Positions 540 through 46,527 of a stretch of 64,000 nt of DNA are shown here, piece by piece. Positions within the stretch are counted from its first letter, which is position 1, and every line of letters starts with the position of its first letter. The stretch is from a phage. Under the pieces are notes generated by a model, which was not told where the DNA came from, searched no databases, and saw only the letters and a list, made by a program, of their open reading frames with translations. Position numbers and translations under genes: made by a program. The DNA is taken from sequence record PZ445448.1. One strand, written 5' to 3'.

Positions 540-2607
540 ATTTATGGCATCTGCATACAACCGTTTCGGTGAGCCAAACCCGAAAGCAACTAAGTATAAA
601 AGTGGGGGAAGTGTGAAACGAGACTATCGTGATGAAAAAGAGGTTGAAACTGTAGAGACTGTTTTAGAAAATACTAAAATTGTCCCTGTCCCACAACAAA
701 ATATCGGTCTGATGGCTGCACAATATTTTGGTGTGCGATCAGCATTGTCACAAGAAGACGGTGTGACAGTCACTGCAACATATTTCCCATATTACGACCG
801 CTACGGAAATCTGTCCGGTTTCAAAAAGCGTGACTGGACTATTCCTAAAGAACAAAGGGGCCACTTCTCCGTTGTTGGCATCGTAAAGGCCAACTCCCAG
901 ATGTTTGGTCAAAAGCTGTGTGCATCTTCCAACAACCGTAAGCAGATTAACGTTTGTGAGGGAGAAGGTGATGTTATTGCAGCATGGCAGGCTGCATATC
1001 AGATACAAGTAAAAGGGATTCTCACCAACGCTAAAGCCCCGGCAAAGGTGAAGCAGTGGGCTAAAGAGGTCCAGGACGGGATCGACGCAGTTATCAACGG
1101 TGGTGATCTGGCAGGAAAACCCTGCCTGCCTTTTGTTGGAATTAACTGTGGATGTGCAAACGCAGTAGATACTTTTGCAAACAATGAGAAGTTTATCCGT
1201 AGCTATGGAACAGTTGTGCTGGCAATGGATAACGATGCAGCTAACGAGGTAGAGAAGCAAAAACACGTCATTAAAGGTGTTGAGGCCACGCACAATATCG
1301 CAGCATTTTTGATGGCTGATAACGTTTACCACGTAGAATACCCTGGTGAAGTAAATGACCCTGACGGGGTAAAAGATATCCGTGACATGCTGAAGGCTAA
1401 AAAGCTGGAAGATATTGTCAACATGTTCCGGCACCCTGTTAAATATGTGCCTGATGCTGTGTCGGATTTAGAAGACTTCTCTATCGAGTCTTTGCGGAAA
1501 AAGACTTCCAACGGGGTAGATATCAGCGCAGAGTTCCCAAAACTGCAAAAAATGCTAAAAGGCTTGCACAAAGGGACACTCGTAATGCTTACAGGGCCAT
1601 CAGGGGGCGGTAAAACAACTGTAGCTAAAAAACTGGAACATTGTATTGCAAGATACCTAATGGACCCGACATGCCCGAAGGCTGATGACTATGAAGAGGA
1701 TGATCGTCTATGTATGATCCATCTTGAGGAGGACCCAGAGGAAGCAATTAACTCCTTGTATGCAAACCAGTTAGGGTTTGATGTTAAAGAGTTTGTTGAA
1801 GATCCTAGCCAGTTTTTAACTGATCAAGAACACGCAGAGATTCACCAATCATGGGCAAAAGCTGGAAAAATCAAAGTGTTCAAACATTTCGGATCTATTC
1901 CGGTGGACGAGTTGATTACCAAGCTTAAGCAAATGGTTTGCCTGTACCATTGCCGTTATATTGTGCTGGATCACCTGTCCATGGTAATTTCAGGGCTTAA
2001 TGTTAAGGATGAGCGAAAAGAACTGGACATGGCTATGACTCAGCTGGCTGCGTTTTGTAAGCAGTTTAACGTGTTTATCTTGGTGATCGCTCACCTCAAA
2101 CGTACAGAGATTGTGCCTCCTAAGGACAAGGATGGTAACCCGTTACCTTTCTGGTATCCTGTGCGAAAAGAGAATTTGCGAGGATCGGCGGGGCTTGAAC
2201 AGTTGAGTTGGGTAGTCATAGGTGTCGAGGCCGAAGAAATGGTGGATCGTTCTCGTGGACGTGTCCGTCTGGTAGGTCTTAAAAACCGTCCAGCAAAAAC
2301 TCTAGGTATTGCTGACACTTTGGTTATGGACCCGCACACAGGTAAGTTCCATGATGCCAGTAATTGGTACTGGGACAAAGAAATGCAAATGTTTACAGAC
2401 GGAGAAGGTGGGGAGGTTGTTTGGAGACCTCAGGCTATGTTTGAGGATCAGGAGCATGCAGTTGTAGAAACACCTATGGGCAAGGTTGTGGCTGATAAGG
2501 TTGTAACTCCTACTGTTAAGCCTGTTGACACGCAGGAAGACCTCCAGTACGATGATCCATCCTCTGACCCGGTCCCTGGTTTTGAGGATGATGAAACGCC
2601 TTTTTAA
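529..2607 (+). CDS. DNA primase-helicase (TOPRIM + DnaB/T7 gp4-like helicase)
   Basis: TOPRIM-like CEGEGD and MDNDAANE; Walker A GPSGGGKTT; Walker B IVLDHLS; acidic C-terminus ending ...EDDETPF. Confidence 0.8.
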   Translation: MGSKFMASAYNRFGEPNPKATKYKSGGSVKRDYRDEKEVETVETVLENTKIVPVPQQNIGLMAAQYFGVRSALSQEDGVTVTATYFPYYDRYGNLSGFKKRDWTIPKEQRGHFSVVGIVKANSQMFGQKLCASSNNRKQINVCEGEGDVIAAWQAAYQIQVKGILTNAKAPAKVKQWAKEVQDGIDAVINGGDLAGKPCLPFVGINCGCANAVDTFANNEKFIRSYGTVVLAMDNDAANEVEKQKHVIKGVEATHNIAAFLMADNVYHVEYPGEVNDPDGVKDIRDMLKAKKLEDIVNMFRHPVKYVPDAVSDLEDFSIESLRKKTSNGVDISAEFPKLQKMLKGLHKGTLVMLTGPSGGGKTTVAKKLEHCIARYLMDPTCPKADDYEEDDRLCMIHLEEDPEEAINSLYANQLGFDVKEFVEDPSQFLTDQEHAEIHQSWAKAGKIKVFKHFGSIPVDELITKLKQMVCLYHCRYIVLDHLSMVISGLNVKDERKELDMAMTQLAAFCKQFNVFILVIAHLKRTEIVPPKDKDGNPLPFWYPVRKENLRGSAGLEQLSWVVIGVEAEEMVDRSRGRVRLVGLKNRPAKTLGIADTLVMDPHTGKFHDASNWYWDKEMQMFTDGEGGEVVWRPQAMFEDQEHAVVETPMGKVVADKVVTPTVKPVDTQEDLQYDDPSSDPVPGFEDDETPF

Positions 2608-2669: not shown

Positions 2670-5093
2670 ATGAGTATGTGGAATTTTGACTTTGAGGCCT
2701 CAGGTCTTCTGGACGAGGAAGATCTTTACTACCATTGTGGCCTGTTTAAAGAGTTGAATAAAAATAATTTTATGTTGTTTTTGCCTATCAATGATAGATC
2801 TCATTACAGTGAAGAGGAGGTTGAAAAAGCAAAACAATTTATGCTGGCAAAGCAAGATATCTATCCTAGCTGCTCTGTCCGTATTGCGGATTTCAGCCAG
2901 CTTGAATGGTGGTTAACCGGGAACTCCGATTGGTCACCCACATCATTAAGTTGTCACAACTGTTTTAGTTATGACTTTATCTTGATGGAGAAGCTGTCTG
3001 GTATTCATTTTGATATGTTCCGTGATCCCAAGTGTATGGGGACAATCAATAATCATCAGGTGAACCTGTTCGACACTCTGCCAATGAGTCGTATACTATG
3101 GCCCGACAGACCGTTACCTAAAGGATGCCCTGATTCTGTATACAATCCTGTTACAAAACGTATGCAGCAGGTAGGTCCTCATGGCCTAATGGCGTGGGGG
3201 TACGCTTTAGGAAACCAGAAGGTTAAAATTGATGACTGGAGAAATTTACCTCTGTGGAAGTATGTTGATCGTGTATTCGAGGACGTTATCATCCAGGAGC
3301 TGCTCTGGAAAGAGCTGGTAGCGGAATCAAAAGGTGTATTCTACGGCAAATCTGACATGCAGAACTTTATGTACGATCCAGCCAAAGAGAAGCCGAAAGG
3401 GTTCAAGAAGATTACCTGGAAGAATGCATTACGCCGAGGCATGCTGCAGCATTTCCTGATGGAGCTGCAGGCTCGACAGGGTGTGTATTTCGACATAGAT
3501 GGGGCTATTGCTTTACGTGACCGCTGCGATGCGTGGATGAAAGAGATCGCTGATCGTGTTGAACCACAACTTCCTTTAAAAGAGTTATCAATGTCTCAGC
3601 GGCCTAAGTTCCCTGAAAAGCCGTTTAACCAGGATGGGACAATCTCCAATAATGGTTGGAAATGGTTAAAAGACAAGCTTGGCTACCCTGTGGACATGAG
3701 TGCTTTAGAATTCAAAGCTCCTCCTAAGCGAGCATTTACCTCCACAGGAGATGTCAGTAAGATGGGGATAAAATGGTGTGAAGAGATGGGCTGTAAAGAC
3801 CCTGATAAGATGGCGGATTTCTTGAGGGGCTATATCAAGGGCACCTCCACACCACAACCTTTACCTAAAGAGCTAATGGATCAGGCAATAAGTGATCTAC
3901 AGCAGAAGCGAATGCCTGACTGCAAGATACCTATGAAAATCAGCAATCAGGACGATATTAAGCGATACCTGATCAGTGCTGGTTGGCTTCCGACAATGTG
4001 GAGAACTAAGGATGTAACTAAAGACAGCAAGAAGAAAGCTCTACCTGATGCAGATGTTGATGCACGAGTGTATGCATATATGGACGAGCTTTTAGAGTCA
4101 GAGTATTGTGACCTAATTATCAACTTCTGGAACAAAACTGATGCTAAGTTCCAGACAACCGTGCACAAGTTCCGAAGCTTTCCTAACTCCGAAAGGATTA
4201 AAAAGGAAGTATTCGGGAAAATACGTAGAAAAGCTAGGGCACTTATTACTTCTCCGCAACTGAAAGATACGTTTGGACACCTATGCCCGAATCTTGAAAA
4301 ATTGAACGGAGAGATGGCTAAAGATATCGTCTTGTGGTTATCATTGCGAAACCGCAGATCGGTCCTTGATCCAATCAAGGAGGATAAGGTTGATACTGGT
4401 CTTCTTAATCACCCACGTTTGAAGATTGACCATAAGCTTCCTGCTAAAAGTTCTGGATTAACAAACACTTCCCGACAGAAACATAGTATTTGTGCAAACA
4501 TGCCTAAACCATCTCCTAAAGTGGTTATGGGTAAAGAGATGCGTAGTCTGTGGGGTGTTCCTCCAGGATACTTTGAGATCGGTATTGACGGGTCCAACTT
4601 AGAGCAGCTTATCGGGGCTTGGGGTGCCTTTGAGTTCGACAACGGCCTGTATTACGATGTTGTAAGTAACGGGGACGCACACCAAAACAATGCTGAGGCA
4701 TATACAAAAGTAGCAGGTAGAGAGGTGTCTCGTAACGACGGTAAACCTATCACGTATGGGGTTATGTATGGGGCACAAAAAGATAAAGTTGCAGATATGC
4801 TGGACATCTCTCCAGAGTTGGGACAAAGGGTAATCGATGCACTCTGGGATGCCAACCCTGGTCTTAAGGGGCGTAAAGAAGATCTGGAGAAATTCTGGGA
4901 AGCAACGGGTAAGAAGTTTATCTACTCTTTTGATGGTCATGCTATCTGGACCCGATCTAAACACTCTTTACTTAATGCATACCAACAAAATGGCGGCGCA
5001 TCGTTGTGTGACTTAGTTGGGATACTCATGCACCATCAAATGGTGAAGCGTGGGTGGTACGATGAAGGTGTTCGTCGTATTATCTATTACCAT
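2670..5093 (+). CDS. DNA polymerase, family A, exon 1 (3'-5' exo + polymerase motifs, ends before motif C)
   Basis: N-terminal FDFEASGL (DnaQ-like Exo I); motif B-like KPITYGVMYGAQ; ORF stops one codon after ...RRIIYYH; SD aaggag upstream. Confidence 0.8.
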
Positions 5094-5935
5094 AAATAAC
5101 ATTGTGGCTTCGTGCAGTGATGCACGTCGAAAACCTCTTTAATTGACGGGAAGGCTAAGTTGACTTTTACACCTAAACATGGTAAAAGCTCAATATGCTA
5201 ATCCGCAGCGAAGACTAAAGGGGTGTAGTTAAAATGGCTAGATCAGTTGAGTATCACGGATATACCGTGTTTGATGATGGAACAATACCTTTATCGAAAC
5301 GTGATCATACAACAATGTTTTGTTTTGATAATGGTCGAGGTTACCTTTGCGTAACCATGTTCATCGAGGGGAAGCAGTGCACAAAAGGTGTCCACCACTT
5401 GGTTGCTGAATGCTTTGTATCAAACCCTGATCCTGAAAGGCTCACATGGGTGAACCATAAGGACGGAAACAAATACAACAATGCATACTGGAACCTTGAA
5501 TGGACCACCCCTGGTGGAAATATCAAACACGCTTATGATAATGACCTCAGAGTAAGGCCAGTCGGTGAGTATAATGCCAACGCTGTACTGACCGAGGATG
5601 AGGTAACGGAGATTTGCGAACTGTTACAAAGTGGTTTACGACAATGCGAGATTAGGGATCTTGGGTATCCTTATGAGACGGTCAGAGCCATAAAGCAAAG
5701 AAGACAGTGGAAACATATCTCTAAAAACTACACCTGGTAGTAACGTTCAGAGACTATCGAAAGCATAGCGCCAACATAAATTGGTGCGAAGAAGCGAGTA
5801 GAGTAGACCAGCAAGTGCGGTCGAAATGGGAGGTGCCTTGGTAACAAGGTAGTGAGATAGTCCGATCCATACAGGAAACTGTATGGCTGTGCACGTAATG
5901 GTGCGGGGTAGCTTAACGACCTACCTGAACTATTG
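5094..5935 (+). mobile_element. putative group I intron with HNH homing endonuclease ORF, inserted at polymerase motif C
   Basis: Exon ends in U (5093), insert ends in G (5935); GACUA and UAGUC strings in 3' part; flanking ORFs rejoin in frame as YYH|DEYQ. Confidence 0.6.
5234..5740 (+). CDS. HNH homing endonuclease
   Basis: HHLVAECF...VNHKDGNKYNNAYWNLEW HNH motif; lies inside the insert splitting the polymerase gene. Confidence 0.75.
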   Translation: MARSVEYHGYTVFDDGTIPLSKRDHTTMFCFDNGRGYLCVTMFIEGKQCTKGVHHLVAECFVSNPDPERLTWVNHKDGNKYNNAYWNLEWTTPGGNIKHAYDNDLRVRPVGEYNANAVLTEDEVTEICELLQSGLRQCEIRDLGYPYETVRAIKQRRQWKHISKNYTW

Positions 5936-43496: not shown

Positions 43497-43970
43497 CTAG
43501 TCTACCTGAACCCAACCGCCTGATACTTTTTTAAACATTCTTTGGTTATCACTGCCTCGGAACGGTTTCTTGGTTGGTAAATCTTTTACATACTTACCGT
43601 CAATGATGATATCAGCCAGTTTAAGAACATCACTAGAGATATGGTCAAATGTGAACCCAGTATATACAAGAATAGTTTTCTTGTCACCAAATTTTTCCTT
43701 AATTTTCTCCATCAGGCTAATAATATCTGGCTCATTATAGTATGCTAAGGGTTCTCCACCCAGCAGAGAGATACCGCACACAGACGGGTTATCTAAATCT
43801 GACAAGATTTTTTGCAAGTCTTCTTCAGTGAACTCCCTCCCCTTATCTTTTGACCAAAATGCCTGATTAAAGCAACCAGGGCAAGCGTGTGGGCACCCAG
43901 ATACCCACAAGGCAGTTCTAATACCTGGCCCTTCGGTGTAAGATATTTCTGTGTATCCGACAATGTTCAT
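43497..43970 (-). CDS. nrdG: anaerobic ribonucleotide reductase activating protein
   Basis: GPGIRTALWVSGCPHACPGCFN radical-SAM cluster motif as in T4 NrdG; 157 aa. Confidence 0.85.
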   Translation of the reverse strand: MNIVGYTEISYTEGPGIRTALWVSGCPHACPGCFNQAFWSKDKGREFTEEDLQKILSDLDNPSVCGISLLGGEPLAYYNEPDIISLMEKIKEKFGDKKTILVYTGFTFDHISSDVLKLADIIIDGKYVKDLPTKKPFRGSDNQRMFKKVSGGWVQVD

Positions 43971-44083
43971 AGATACTCCGCATCACATTTAGGGCAATGC
44001 CAAATAAAATCGTCTAGTGCCTTGCACCAACGAAGATTGCAACTACATCCGCACTTGCAAATTTTATAAATACCTGATGACAT
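43967..44083 (-). CDS. small Cys-rich zinc-ribbon peptide (38 aa)
   Basis: MSSGIYKICKCGCSCNLRWCKALDDFIWHCPKCDAEYL; stop overlaps nrdG start. Confidence 0.3.
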   Translation of the reverse strand: MSSGIYKICKCGCSCNLRWCKALDDFIWHCPKCDAEYL

Positions 44084-44146
44084 ACTGCACCTCCTAGCTC
44101 ACTGTGTGTCAATAATATGCCACATCCTTGTGGCTTTTGTCAAGAA

Positions 44147-45409
44147 TCAGCAACCACAACTTCCGTAGTGCTTAACTCGCTCGATAACTTCCGCTTGCTT
44201 ACCTTTATTGTAAGGACGGGAGTTAGGACTGGAAAGATATCCAGACACTCTTCGGATCACTGAGATATATTGTTCATCGTGGCATCCGCACGCAGGGCAG
44301 CAGAACCCTTTAGCTGTTGCACTGAACTCACCAGAGAAACCACACTTGAGACATTTATCCACAGGTTGGTTAATACCAAAATACATAATGTGTTTATACC
44401 CGAAGTCAACAAGAGCCTCTAAAGCATCCAAGTTGTTTTTCAGGTTAGGTGTCTCTACGTATCCGATGTTGCCACCAGAGGAGATCATAGCAAAACCTTC
44501 CTCATACTCCCACTTATCAAAAGGAGAGCTATTTATCCATACTGGCTGATGGAAACTGTTGGTGAGATATTCATGCTCGTGCTTCAACACTTCCGGATAT
44601 TCACGATCCAGACAGGTTGCAGCTTTATAGCATAGACTCTCAGAAGGAGTGCCGTACAAGCTAAACGCTAGTCTACTTTCCTTCTTGTATCGCTCACAAG
44701 CATCTCTCATGTGCTGAAGGATTCCAAGAGCTAAAGCCTTGTCACCCTCTCTACCCAAAATCTGACAGGTTTCATACACACCAATATACCCAATACTGAT
44801 GGAAGCGTACCCGTCATAGAAGAGTTTATCAATACTCTCTTCAGGATCCAGGCGAGCAAGAGCTCCTTCACACCACATGATTGGGTTCTGCCCTGCCTTT
44901 GTTCCTTTTAGACGGTTAACCCTTACAAGGTGAGCCTCGTATGCAAGATCCAAGTATTCGTCAAGAACTGCAAAGAAATCAACACCTTCCGTCTTAGCTT
45001 TTGCCGCAATCATTGGTAGGTTAAGGCTAACAACGCCTAAGTTAAATCTGCCAAGATATTTCTCCTCGCCTGTTTCCAAGTCACTGTATTTGCTAAGAAA
45101 ACTCCGGCAACCCATGCTCGTTACTTTGCCATCTGTCGAGCCTGTCACTTTTCTATTTAGTGGTACAGATACGAAGTCAGGGTAGATACGTTCTGCACAG
45201 CATTCCAGAGCTAATCGTTTCAAATCATAGTTAGGATCCTCAGGGTTCATGTTGACACCCTCTTCTAGGAAGAACAGCACTTTAGGGAACACAGGTGTGA
45301 TCCGTTCTTCACCAAGACCCATTTTGTGGACTTTCAAGTAATTTTTGGTAATCATTCTACCAAAGACCGAGGTATCCAGTCCTAAACTTAATGTGATAAA
45401 AGGGGTTTG
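44147..45409 (-). CDS. nrdD: anaerobic ribonucleoside-triphosphate reductase, exon 2
   Basis: C-terminal CCPACGC zinc site and glycyl-radical RVSGYL; frame open upstream of track Met to Q codon at 45409. Confidence 0.8.
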   Translation of the reverse strand, partial: QTPFITLSLGLDTSVFGRMITKNYLKVHKMGLGEERITPVFPKVLFFLEEGVNMNPEDPNYDLKRLALECCAERIYPDFVSVPLNRKVTGSTDGKVTSMGCRSFLSKYSDLETGEEKYLGRFNLGVVSLNLPMIAAKAKTEGVDFFAVLDEYLDLAYEAHLVRVNRLKGTKAGQNPIMWCEGALARLDPEESIDKLFYDGYASISIGYIGVYETCQILGREGDKALALGILQHMRDACERYKKESRLAFSLYGTPSESLCYKAATCLDREYPEVLKHEHEYLTNSFHQPVWINSSPFDKWEYEEGFAMISSGGNIGYVETPNLKNNLDALEALVDFGYKHIMYFGINQPVDKCLKCGFSGEFSATAKGFCCPACGCHDEQYISVIRRVSGYLSSPNSRPYNKGKQAEVIERVKHYGSCGC

Positions 45410-45666
45410 CGGTCCCCACCCTTATGTTTCCACAAGGCCAGACTATCTCTTGCCTGAAATCACACCGTGTGATTCTTAATCAGACCCCTGCGTTTCGGAA
45501 TCTTCCATAATCCCTACACCAAAAGGTTAGTCGTTACAACCGCCTCACTCCTTGTGAAGCTAGTCACGGGATTGGCATAGCTTTCGCCTTAGCGTTCCCC
45601 GTTAGCCAGCGATCAGCTGACCCCTCATACTAAGGTTAGCAGAGTTTTAAAACGGCCAGTTTGTTA
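45410..45666 (-). mobile_element. ORF-less group I intron in nrdD
   Basis: Exon 1 ends in U, intron ends in G; ACGGGGAAC...CAAUCCCGUG and GACUA/UAGUC core strings; splice gives ...LTSVNG|QTPF... Confidence 0.75.
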
Positions 45667-46527
45667 ACCGTTTACCGAGGTTAGTGTGTTGATCTGATAA
45701 AGCAACGTCTGCATGCTGTCAAACACGTCTTTATCTGTCATTTGCATTGCAACAGTCTCAGCATCTGGCAACCAATGTTCCTGGCAAAATTTAAGGTTCT
45801 TCTCATAAGTCGCCTCAGCATACTGTGCCAAATAATGGTCAATATGGCTCATAGTCTGACCCCCATATTGAGCACTAGCTACTGCACTAGAGATTTGGCT
45901 AAGGATTGTTGTTGCAACCCCTATTGACTTCGGCTTACTGACATGGGCGTTACCAATGTTGAATCCGTTTTCCAACATATCTGGATAATTTACCAAACAA
46001 CAGTTTGTTAACGGACTGATCAAGTAGTCAAGATCATGCACATGGATGAAGCCTTTATTGTGCTCTTCTGAAACACGGTCTGGCAGGATCTGTGTTGATG
46101 CAAGGTGTTTGCTAAGGATGCCTGCAAGCAGGTCACGATGAGTGTGTACATGATTGGTAGGCTTATTTGCGTTTTCTTTTGTAAATTCATCACAAGTTCG
46201 ATCCAAGAAGCCACTAATATCTGCAAGCAGTTTTCCACCTGCCTCTCTGTTATTATCTCTTGTCTGTCTATACTGGATGTATTCTCTGGCTGCACATTTT
46301 AAACCCATATCCATAAGAGCATCTTCAACAAGGATATGGATATTTTTTACAGAGATCGTGCACTGGTCGGTTGGTAGATTGTTAGCAACAACTTCATTAA
46401 CCGCGCAGGCGATCCGGTAAGCTTCTTCTTCAGTATGTCCAGACTCAAGTAAGGCGGACTCTGCCGCCTTGATCACCTTAATTCCGTTATAGAACTCTTC
46501 TCTACCGTCCCGTTTTACAACTTTCAC
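45667..46527 (-). CDS. nrdD: anaerobic ribonucleoside-triphosphate reductase, exon 1
   Basis: N-terminal ATP-cone-like MKVVKRDGREEFYNGIKV; ORF stop lies 1 codon past proposed 5' splice site. Confidence 0.8.

Follow-up and report, generated by a model that had tools for sequence, protein, structure and literature searches.

A probable T4-like group I intron with two additional hairpins in the nrdD gene of an rV5-like Vequintavirus coliphage

The stretch of phage DNA analysed here (the window; 64,000 nt, sequence record PZ445448.1) carries on its minus strand the gene row nrdA, nrdB, a glutaredoxin gene, nrdD and nrdG. In the ORF list nrdD appears as two minus-strand reading frames, 45664..46527 (287 aa, ending in LTSVNG followed by TAA) and 44147..45355 (402 aa). 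A first-pass annotation had read the two frames as exons lying about 257 nt apart, separated by a compact, ORF-less group I intron. The intervening sequence as we delimit it, 45410..45666, is exactly 257 nt long, while the listed ORFs themselves lie 308 nt apart. The 501 nt around this interval are 99.8% identical to Vequintavirus (rV5-like) coliphages, e.g. vB_EcoM_bov10K2, HeinrichReichert and RudolfGeigy. About 23 records named 'Campylobacter phage' with the host C. jejuni (MG065644, MG065690, MG065655, MG065658 and others) are also 93-98% identical here to E. coli rV5-like phages; these records may carry wrong names or hosts, or stem from mixed samples.

Exon 1 (46527..45667, minus strand) has 287 codons with a GTG start and encodes the ATP-cone and the N-terminal part of NrdD. 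The ORF from GTG 46527 holds a complete ATP-cone (aa 2-91, E 1.3e-12); the nrdD CDS in the BASEL GenBank records starts 213 nt downstream of this GTG (about 46314), which would cut the domain. Exon 1 ends in ACC TCG GTA AAC GGT, and its final T, U45667 in the RNA, is the U of the 5' splice site. The first three intron bases (45666-45664) are TAA and form an in-frame stop codon for exon 1. Upstream of its ATG at 45355 the exon-2 frame is open past the CAA codon (Q) at 45409 and meets a TAA four codons further up, and the 18 codons before this Met are conserved coding sequence in homologues, including about 80 intron-less Vequintavirus alleles. Exon 2 (45409..44147, minus strand; 420 codons plus stop) thus begins with CAA ACC CCT TTT (QTPF) and encodes the glycyl-radical domain, and directly before its CAA lies the terminal guanosine of the intron, G45410. 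The LTSVNG end with its terminal U, the exon-2 frame open to Q45409 and the preceding G had all been described in the first-pass annotation and are present.

Joining 46527..45667 to 45409..44147 yields a NrdD protein of 707 aa. This product aligns with the sequence of the T4 NrdD crystal structure 1h78 (E 1e-167) without a gap over tsvNG|QTPFitl, and is likewise gapless over the junction when compared to 9d3x. Pfam places the ATP-cone (aa 2-91), NRDD (aa 118-701) and Gly_radical all on the one spliced protein. When an artificial 400-nt exon-exon sequence was used as query, about 80 Vequintavirus records matched it in one piece with 90-95% identity, and the intron-less alleles of JeffSchatz, Murica and NHEP1 read GTC AAC GGG|CAA AC at the insertion point. 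The splice product TSVNG|QTPF, as originally proposed, is thus contiguous in nature at the very same point, and the 3' junction was set by these intron-less alleles together with the protein alignment. All intron-containing alleles have GGT where JeffSchatz, Murica and NHEP1 have GGG, so that the U needed at a group I 5' splice site is present. Two other placements were rejected: a cut behind the second U (45666) would put exon 2 out of frame, and a 5' site after G45668 combined with a 3' site after C45411, which would yield an mRNA of the intron-less type (GGG CAA), breaks the rule of a U at position -1 and a terminal G.

At this locus many GenBank entries show two separate CDS, and an ATG is available at 45355 within exon 2, as would be expected if nrdD were a genuinely split gene whose two polypeptides are translated separately and assemble after translation. 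There is a precedent in NrdA of Aeromonas phage Aeh1, which, according to the passages of PMC3653736 and PMC7344957 that cite this case, is split by mobE and whose products assemble post-translationally. We consider this very improbable for nrdD. Translation from ATG 45355 would lose the 18 open codons QTPFITLSLGLDTSVFGR, to which T4 NrdD aligns without a gap and with the QTPF motif in common, there is no start codon at the homologous boundary, and what lies between the exons is no endonuclease gene but a structured RNA of the group I type. Furthermore, the NrdD homologues, among them the roughly 80 intron-less Vequintavirus alleles, are encoded by one gene. Next to no weight can be given to another kind of intervening element, i.e. 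an intein, a group II intron or a translational bypass as in T4 gene 60. The stop codon right after GGU at the 5' boundary superficially resembles a bypass take-off site, but the bases just before CAA are ACCG, so that a matching GGU landing codon is absent, and the gap of gene 60 is only a fifth as long as these 257 nt. An intein is contradicted by the closure of all frames, and a group II intron by the length of 257 nt, the lack of a reverse transcriptase and the group I core.

The intron (45666..45410, minus strand; 257 nt) is ORF-less, each of its three frames being closed by stops. The Rfam group I model RF00028 matches 45420..45676 over its full model length with 29.8 bits (E 9e-6 locally, 0.0011 for the whole window), a score below the gathering threshold of 50 bits. 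A scan of the window at the gathering threshold therefore reported no match, and the intron appears only when an E-value threshold is applied. The minimum free energy (MFE) fold has a z-score of -4.59, and none of 200 shuffled sequences folded equally well. From the window intron and L053 (IMGVR_UViG_3300010279_000001, a metagenomic contig of Vequintavirus type with the same ORF-less nrdD intron), its closest relative among metagenomic sequences, we derived a covariance model that finds 60 phage introns in 44 sources. Among its matches is the core of the T4 nrdD intron (36.2 bits, E 2.8e-10), in agreement with the likeness to T4-type cores noted in the first-pass annotation. In the alignment of the 60 introns, 93.4% of the cells form standard pairs, compared to 58% in column shuffles and about 40% when the partners were slid by 1-3 columns; these counts are inflated because the alignment was fitted to the structure of the model, but the margin over the controls is still large. 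Changes on both sides occur in 72 of the 75 pairs, and each of the 14 helices is at least 82% paired. The pairs of the P3/P7 pseudoknot and of the P3-P8 and P4-P6 core were all mapped. An alternative procedure, MAFFT and RNAalifold on 36 relatives, misaligned P7.1-P8 of the window and recovered the structure only partly, and was replaced by the covariance-model alignment.

Further support for the fold comes from the differences among the window intron, L053 and a 797-nt form of the intron in related phages that encodes an HNH protein (the HNH form). They are compensatory or wobble changes in P1, P3, P3.1, P3.2, P6a, P7.2 and P9, and in P6a and P7.2 the sequences differ among the Vequintavirus forms while pairing is compensated. 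Helices P7.1 and P7.2 between P7 and the 3' strand of P3 are the hallmark of subgroup IA2 in the Michel-Westhof classification. Both are found here, together with core strings common to T4 sunY. Overall, the RF00028 match, the fold, the covariation and the closed frames support the original reading of the interval as a compact, ORF-less group I intron.

The full secondary structure was written out and each base pair checked. The intron starts with UAAC, then P1 follows, and P2 is absent. P1 (45650..45673, minus strand), supported by the cmscan alignment, the MFE fold and the pair check, is formed by AAACGGU of the exon and UA of the intron (45673-45665) with the internal guide UGGCCGUUU (45658-45650), and places a U45667·G wobble at the cleavage site. 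At exon position -7 an A-U pair with the guide is found here, compared to a compensatory C-G pair in the HNH form. The 5' strand of P3, CUCUGC (45639..45644, minus strand), pairs with the 3' strand GCAGGG (45491-45486, i.e. 45486..45491 on the minus strand); the former is supported by homology with P3 of T4 sunY, the latter by the MFE fold, the pair check and the family alignment. The pairing CUCUGC/GCAGGG is replaced by CUCUCC/GGAGAG in the HNH form, and L053 has GCAGAG as its 3' strand, again compensatory changes; across the family alignment, 96.4% of P3 is paired, with covariation at each of its six pairs. cmscan placed P3 differently (CGCUG..CU with CG.CAGGG). This placement was rejected in favour of the distal CUCUGC/GCAGGG, which is perfect, homologous to T4 sunY, chosen by the MFE fold and covarying.

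Between P3 and J3/4 the MFE fold contains two extra hairpins, labelled P3.1 and P3.2 in this analysis: CCUU/GAGG at 45635-45623 and GUCAGC/GCUGGC at 45621-45605 (both minus strand), the second followed by UAA (J3/4). The P4-P5-P6 domain (45538..45602, minus strand) consists of P4 (ACGGGG/UCCCGU), J4/5 (AAC), P5/P5a with a GAAA loop, J5/4 (CAA) and P6/P6a, and rests on the cmscan alignment, the MFE fold, the pair check and helices 5-9 of the family alignment. The guanosine-binding helix P7 is formed by GACUA (45528..45532, minus strand; pair check) and UAGUC (45445-45441, i.e. 45441..45445 on the minus strand; cmscan alignment and pair check), with J8/7 (AAGAGA) just 5' of the latter, and makes a pseudoknot with P3. 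GACUA/UAGUC is near-invariant in the family (found in 47-48 of the roughly 50 rows in which both strands have letters), as would be expected of the helix that binds guanosine. Of the strings that the first-pass annotation had quoted, ACGGGGAAC...CAAUCCCGUG corresponds to P4/P4' and GACUA...UAGUC to P7/P7', and both are present. P7.1 (ACC UUUU GGU, 45527-45518) and P7.2 (GGGAUU..GAUUCC, 45514-45497), both on the minus strand, covary as helices 10-11 of the alignment and are followed by CGAAAC. The P8/P8a hairpin (45452..45485, minus strand; MFE fold and pair check) is the place of the HNH ORF in sister phages. At the 3' end (45410..45439, minus strand; pair check, helix 14), P9.0 (GG/CC), P9 (CCUUGUG GAAA CAUAAGG) and a 9-nt tail end in the terminal G45410; P9 of the HNH form, CCCUGUG/CACAGGG, has C-G and G-C pairs in place of U-A and G·U, a compensatory change. 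P10 comprises 2 bp at best. The region hence folds into a P1-P9 architecture with all helices mapped and supported by covariation.

Together P3.1 and P3.2 add about 34 nt downstream of the 5' strand of P3, ahead of the UAA that leads into P4. These hairpins, helices 3 and 4 of the family alignment, covary and reach 97-98% pairing, and the variants of L053 and the HNH form keep the pairing: in P3.1 a U·G pair of the window corresponds to C-G in the other form, in P3.2 CAGC/GCUG corresponds to CGG/CCG. Subgroup IA2 is characterised by a short J3/4 of 3-4 nt, and T4 sunY and td have UAAA alone at this position, without P3.1 and P3.2, whereas two hairpins intervene here. The two-hairpin segment is flanked by a GCUAAC repeat, and its deletion would restore a canonical P3-J3/4-P4. 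Among IMG/VR contigs, 109 stretches match the core motif GCUAACGGGGAA..AAUCCCGUG..CGACUA, and the two-hairpin architecture was confirmed in roughly 35-60 examined stretches of these 109. The order of elements in the IMG/VR introns is the same as in the window (P1, P3, two hairpins, J3/4, P4-P9), but they reside in other genes or at other nrdD sites and their identity with the window is limited to the core. A first test of P3 in this set, with wide search windows and G·U pairs allowed, gave 7.75 bp within sequences compared to 7.3 bp across sequences. In an anchored 6-mer test on 35 diverse members, 27 had a perfect complement to the 6 nt after CGAAAY at a distance of 30-50 nt upstream of GCUAAC, compared to 21% of mismatched sequence pairs.

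Only one of about 11 two-hairpin introns in a test set (which includes L215, L203, L230, L190, L151, L232, L133, L150, L143 and L191) reaches 50 bits with RF00028, while canonical neighbours score 86-100. The low score is probably due to the 34-nt insertion, which made cmscan mis-assign P3, and default Rfam scans probably under-detect this layout. Literature searches on P3.1/P3.2 and on hairpins between P3 and P4 returned nothing relevant and no name for such elements. That P3.1 and P3.2 define a structurally undescribed IA2-like sub-class of phage group I introns is a tentative and rather doubtful proposal, and the layout is perhaps catalogued under another name. If it were true, many split phage genes that are annotated as two CDS would be unrecognised introns of the two-hairpin type. 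We know of no characterised ribozyme with 34 nt of extra structure at J3/4, a junction of 3-4 nt in canonical group I introns, so that catalytic competence is inferred from conservation.

The intron in T4 nrdD (sunY) is among the closest known systems. It interrupts the same host gene in the same conserved stretch of the protein, and both introns have an IA2-type core without P2 but with P7.1 and P7.2. Shared strings include the UAAC start, AAAA-P3, CAAUCC, AACGACUA (P7), GUAGGG..CGAAAC (P7.2) and AAGAnAUAGUC. Set beside T4, the window shows P4 flanked by AAC and CAA, followed by P3', P8, AAGAGAUAGUC (P7') and P9 with its GAAA loop. However, according to the reconstructed T4 splice junction, the T4 intron lies after CDS nt 538, inside the Tyr180 codon, whereas the window intron is inserted after the codon equivalent to T4 Gly190, 32 nt downstream. 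The T4 intron is 1033 nt long, with I-TevII, an endonuclease annotated as a GIY-YIG family member, encoded 3' of its core, in contrast to the 257 nt without ORF of the window. Neither the site nor I-TevII, by which an orthologue of the T4 intron would be recognised, is therefore found. The comparison with T4 suggested at the outset confirms homology of the core, but the insertion site is different and two extra hairpins are present; the window intron has a homologous core, yet is not the orthologue of the T4 intron.

Three states of the locus exist in related phages: about 80 records are intron-less, 13 carry the ORF-less form and about 28 the HNH form. The ORF-less intron is 98.8-100% identical in the 13 independently deposited phage records and 100% identical to the window in HeinrichReichert and RudolfGeigy (BASEL; MZ501073, MZ501102). 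The 797-nt HNH form (FV3, FFH2, nomine, WalterGehring, isim) occupies an insertion site identical to that of the window and shares its architecture including P3.1/P3.2, with about 86% identity over the 5' 142 nt and 3' 45 nt. It encodes a 177-aa protein in the P8 loop (HNH_3 domain, identified in the L002 ORF), with the start codon inside P8. P7.1, P7.2 and P8 differ from those of the window in sequence and length, and the exon flanks carry synonymous variants different from the window's. In the window intron no ORF is found in any frame and tblastn detects no HNH remnant, so that, of the two forms, it is the sister form that encodes an HNH_3 protein. Because P7.1-P8 diverged and no ORF remnant is left, we regard the window form as a diverged sister and not as a recent deletion derivative of the HNH form.

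The exon flanks of the window intron are mosaic. Compared to intron-less JeffSchatz, the window has nine differences in the 50 nt before the site and five in the 50 nt after it, all 14 of them synonymous, against a nrdD background of mostly 0-2 per 50 nt. The 60-nt 5' flank is closer to the otherwise diverged L053 allele than to JeffSchatz, matching L053 in 38 of 40 bases of the last full exon window and in each of the 21 exon bases that remain. Over the remainder of exon 1, identity to JeffSchatz is 97-100%, whereas identity to L053 is mostly 50-85% and rises to about 90% immediately ahead of the tract. A gene conversion that brings the intron along with a short stretch of donor exon would be expected to leave such a pattern, and together with the presence/absence polymorphism the clustered synonymous changes beside the site indicate lateral transfer. 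The window intron thus appears to be an optional, laterally moving element. The ORF-less form may have moved with the help of an endonuclease acting in trans or by ordinary recombination.

A decayed, catalytically dead relic in a nrdD pseudogene, with the phage relying on its class I NrdAB, would account for the Rfam score below threshold, for the missing endonuclease ORF and for the presence of nrdA and nrdB, but we judge it improbable. The exons are intact and the encoded protein is 99.6% identical to the NrdD of intron-less JeffSchatz, with no amino acid exchange among the flank differences. All core helices are intact, changes between the window, L053 and HNH versions are compensatory, and the intron itself is nearly invariant across the 13 records.

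With the boundaries, the covarying fold, the core homology to T4, the presence/absence polymorphism and the flank mosaicism observed directly, it is very likely that the 257 nt are a T4-like IA2-type group I intron in nrdD of an rV5-like Vequintavirus coliphage, with catalysis deduced from these features. Most likely the intron excises itself from the RNA by standard group I self-splicing. The nrd gene cluster would be transcribed through the intron, and the RNA would fold into P1-P9. Free guanosine bound in P7 would then attack after U45667, at the U·G wobble in P1, and the released 3'-OH of exon 1 would attack after the terminal G45410. The ligated mRNA, reading GGU|CAA at the junction, would be translated into the full-length 707-aa NrdD. 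If the RNA stays unspliced, the reading frame of exon 1 ends at the UAA with which the intron begins, and NrdD synthesis would thus depend on splicing.

Further insertions occur in nrdD of other viruses. L053 has a second intron-like insert of about 251 nt (about 2285..2535) after the codon equivalent to NrdD residue 387; the window-derived model gives it 32 bits and tblastn finds the gene in three exon pieces. In L043, L056, L117, L182 and L203, which are unrelated viral contigs, nrdD is interrupted at about aa 369-387 or 544-567 (window numbering) by introns of the same broad family. The occurrence of nrdD introns at still other positions in viral contigs makes nrdD a recurrent target and suggests a multi-site intron hotspot. 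L230 and L143, with five model hits each, are examples of viral contigs in which about 5-15 kb contain four or five related group I introns. In WalterGehring and nomine, a stand-alone gene for about 330 aa separates nrdD from nrdG (L003 4732..5724; L002 4825..5757). The WalterGehring record calls its product a putative homing endonuclease, the nomine record a hypothetical protein. At this place the window (about 43970..44147) and HeinrichReichert have only a short ORF of 117 nt.

The window holds a second group I intron at 5094..5935 on the plus strand (RF00028 39.1 bits, below threshold; E 1.8e-6 for the whole window). It interrupts the gene for a family-A DNA polymerase (ORF 2670..5099), and splicing after U5093 and G5935 would give IIYYH|DEYQ, restoring an HDE that we take to be polymerase motif C. 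This intron contains an ORF of 168 aa (5234..5740) whose product shows weak similarity (42% over 62 aa, E 7e-6) to the HNH protein encoded in the sister nrdD intron.

In the BASEL GenBank records nrdD is annotated as a two-part join that removes exactly 257 nt in HeinrichReichert and 797 nt in WalterGehring (annotated span minus the CDS length of the intron-less gene). According to the BASEL paper, comparative genomics served to define intron boundaries. In the rV5 genome paper terminase introns are the only ones mentioned, and a survey of phage ribonucleotide reductases does not list rV5-like phages; in the searchable literature we found no description of the RNA class, structure or splicing of the identical BASEL intron. 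The intron is ordinary in kind, and the join is already annotated in public records of identical phages. In many other public Vequintavirus records, nrdD is entered as two genes. These two-CDS records and the empty default Rfam scan make nrdD look broken, although it is most likely intact after splicing.

The importance of the intron lies mostly in annotation, and the understanding of group I introns is unchanged by it. Nevertheless, the locus provides a tidy case of intron dynamics, with one site in three states (empty, ORF-less and HNH-bearing), exon flanks that show a gene-conversion tract, and in T4 a homologous ribozyme 32 nt away that is associated with a different endonuclease.
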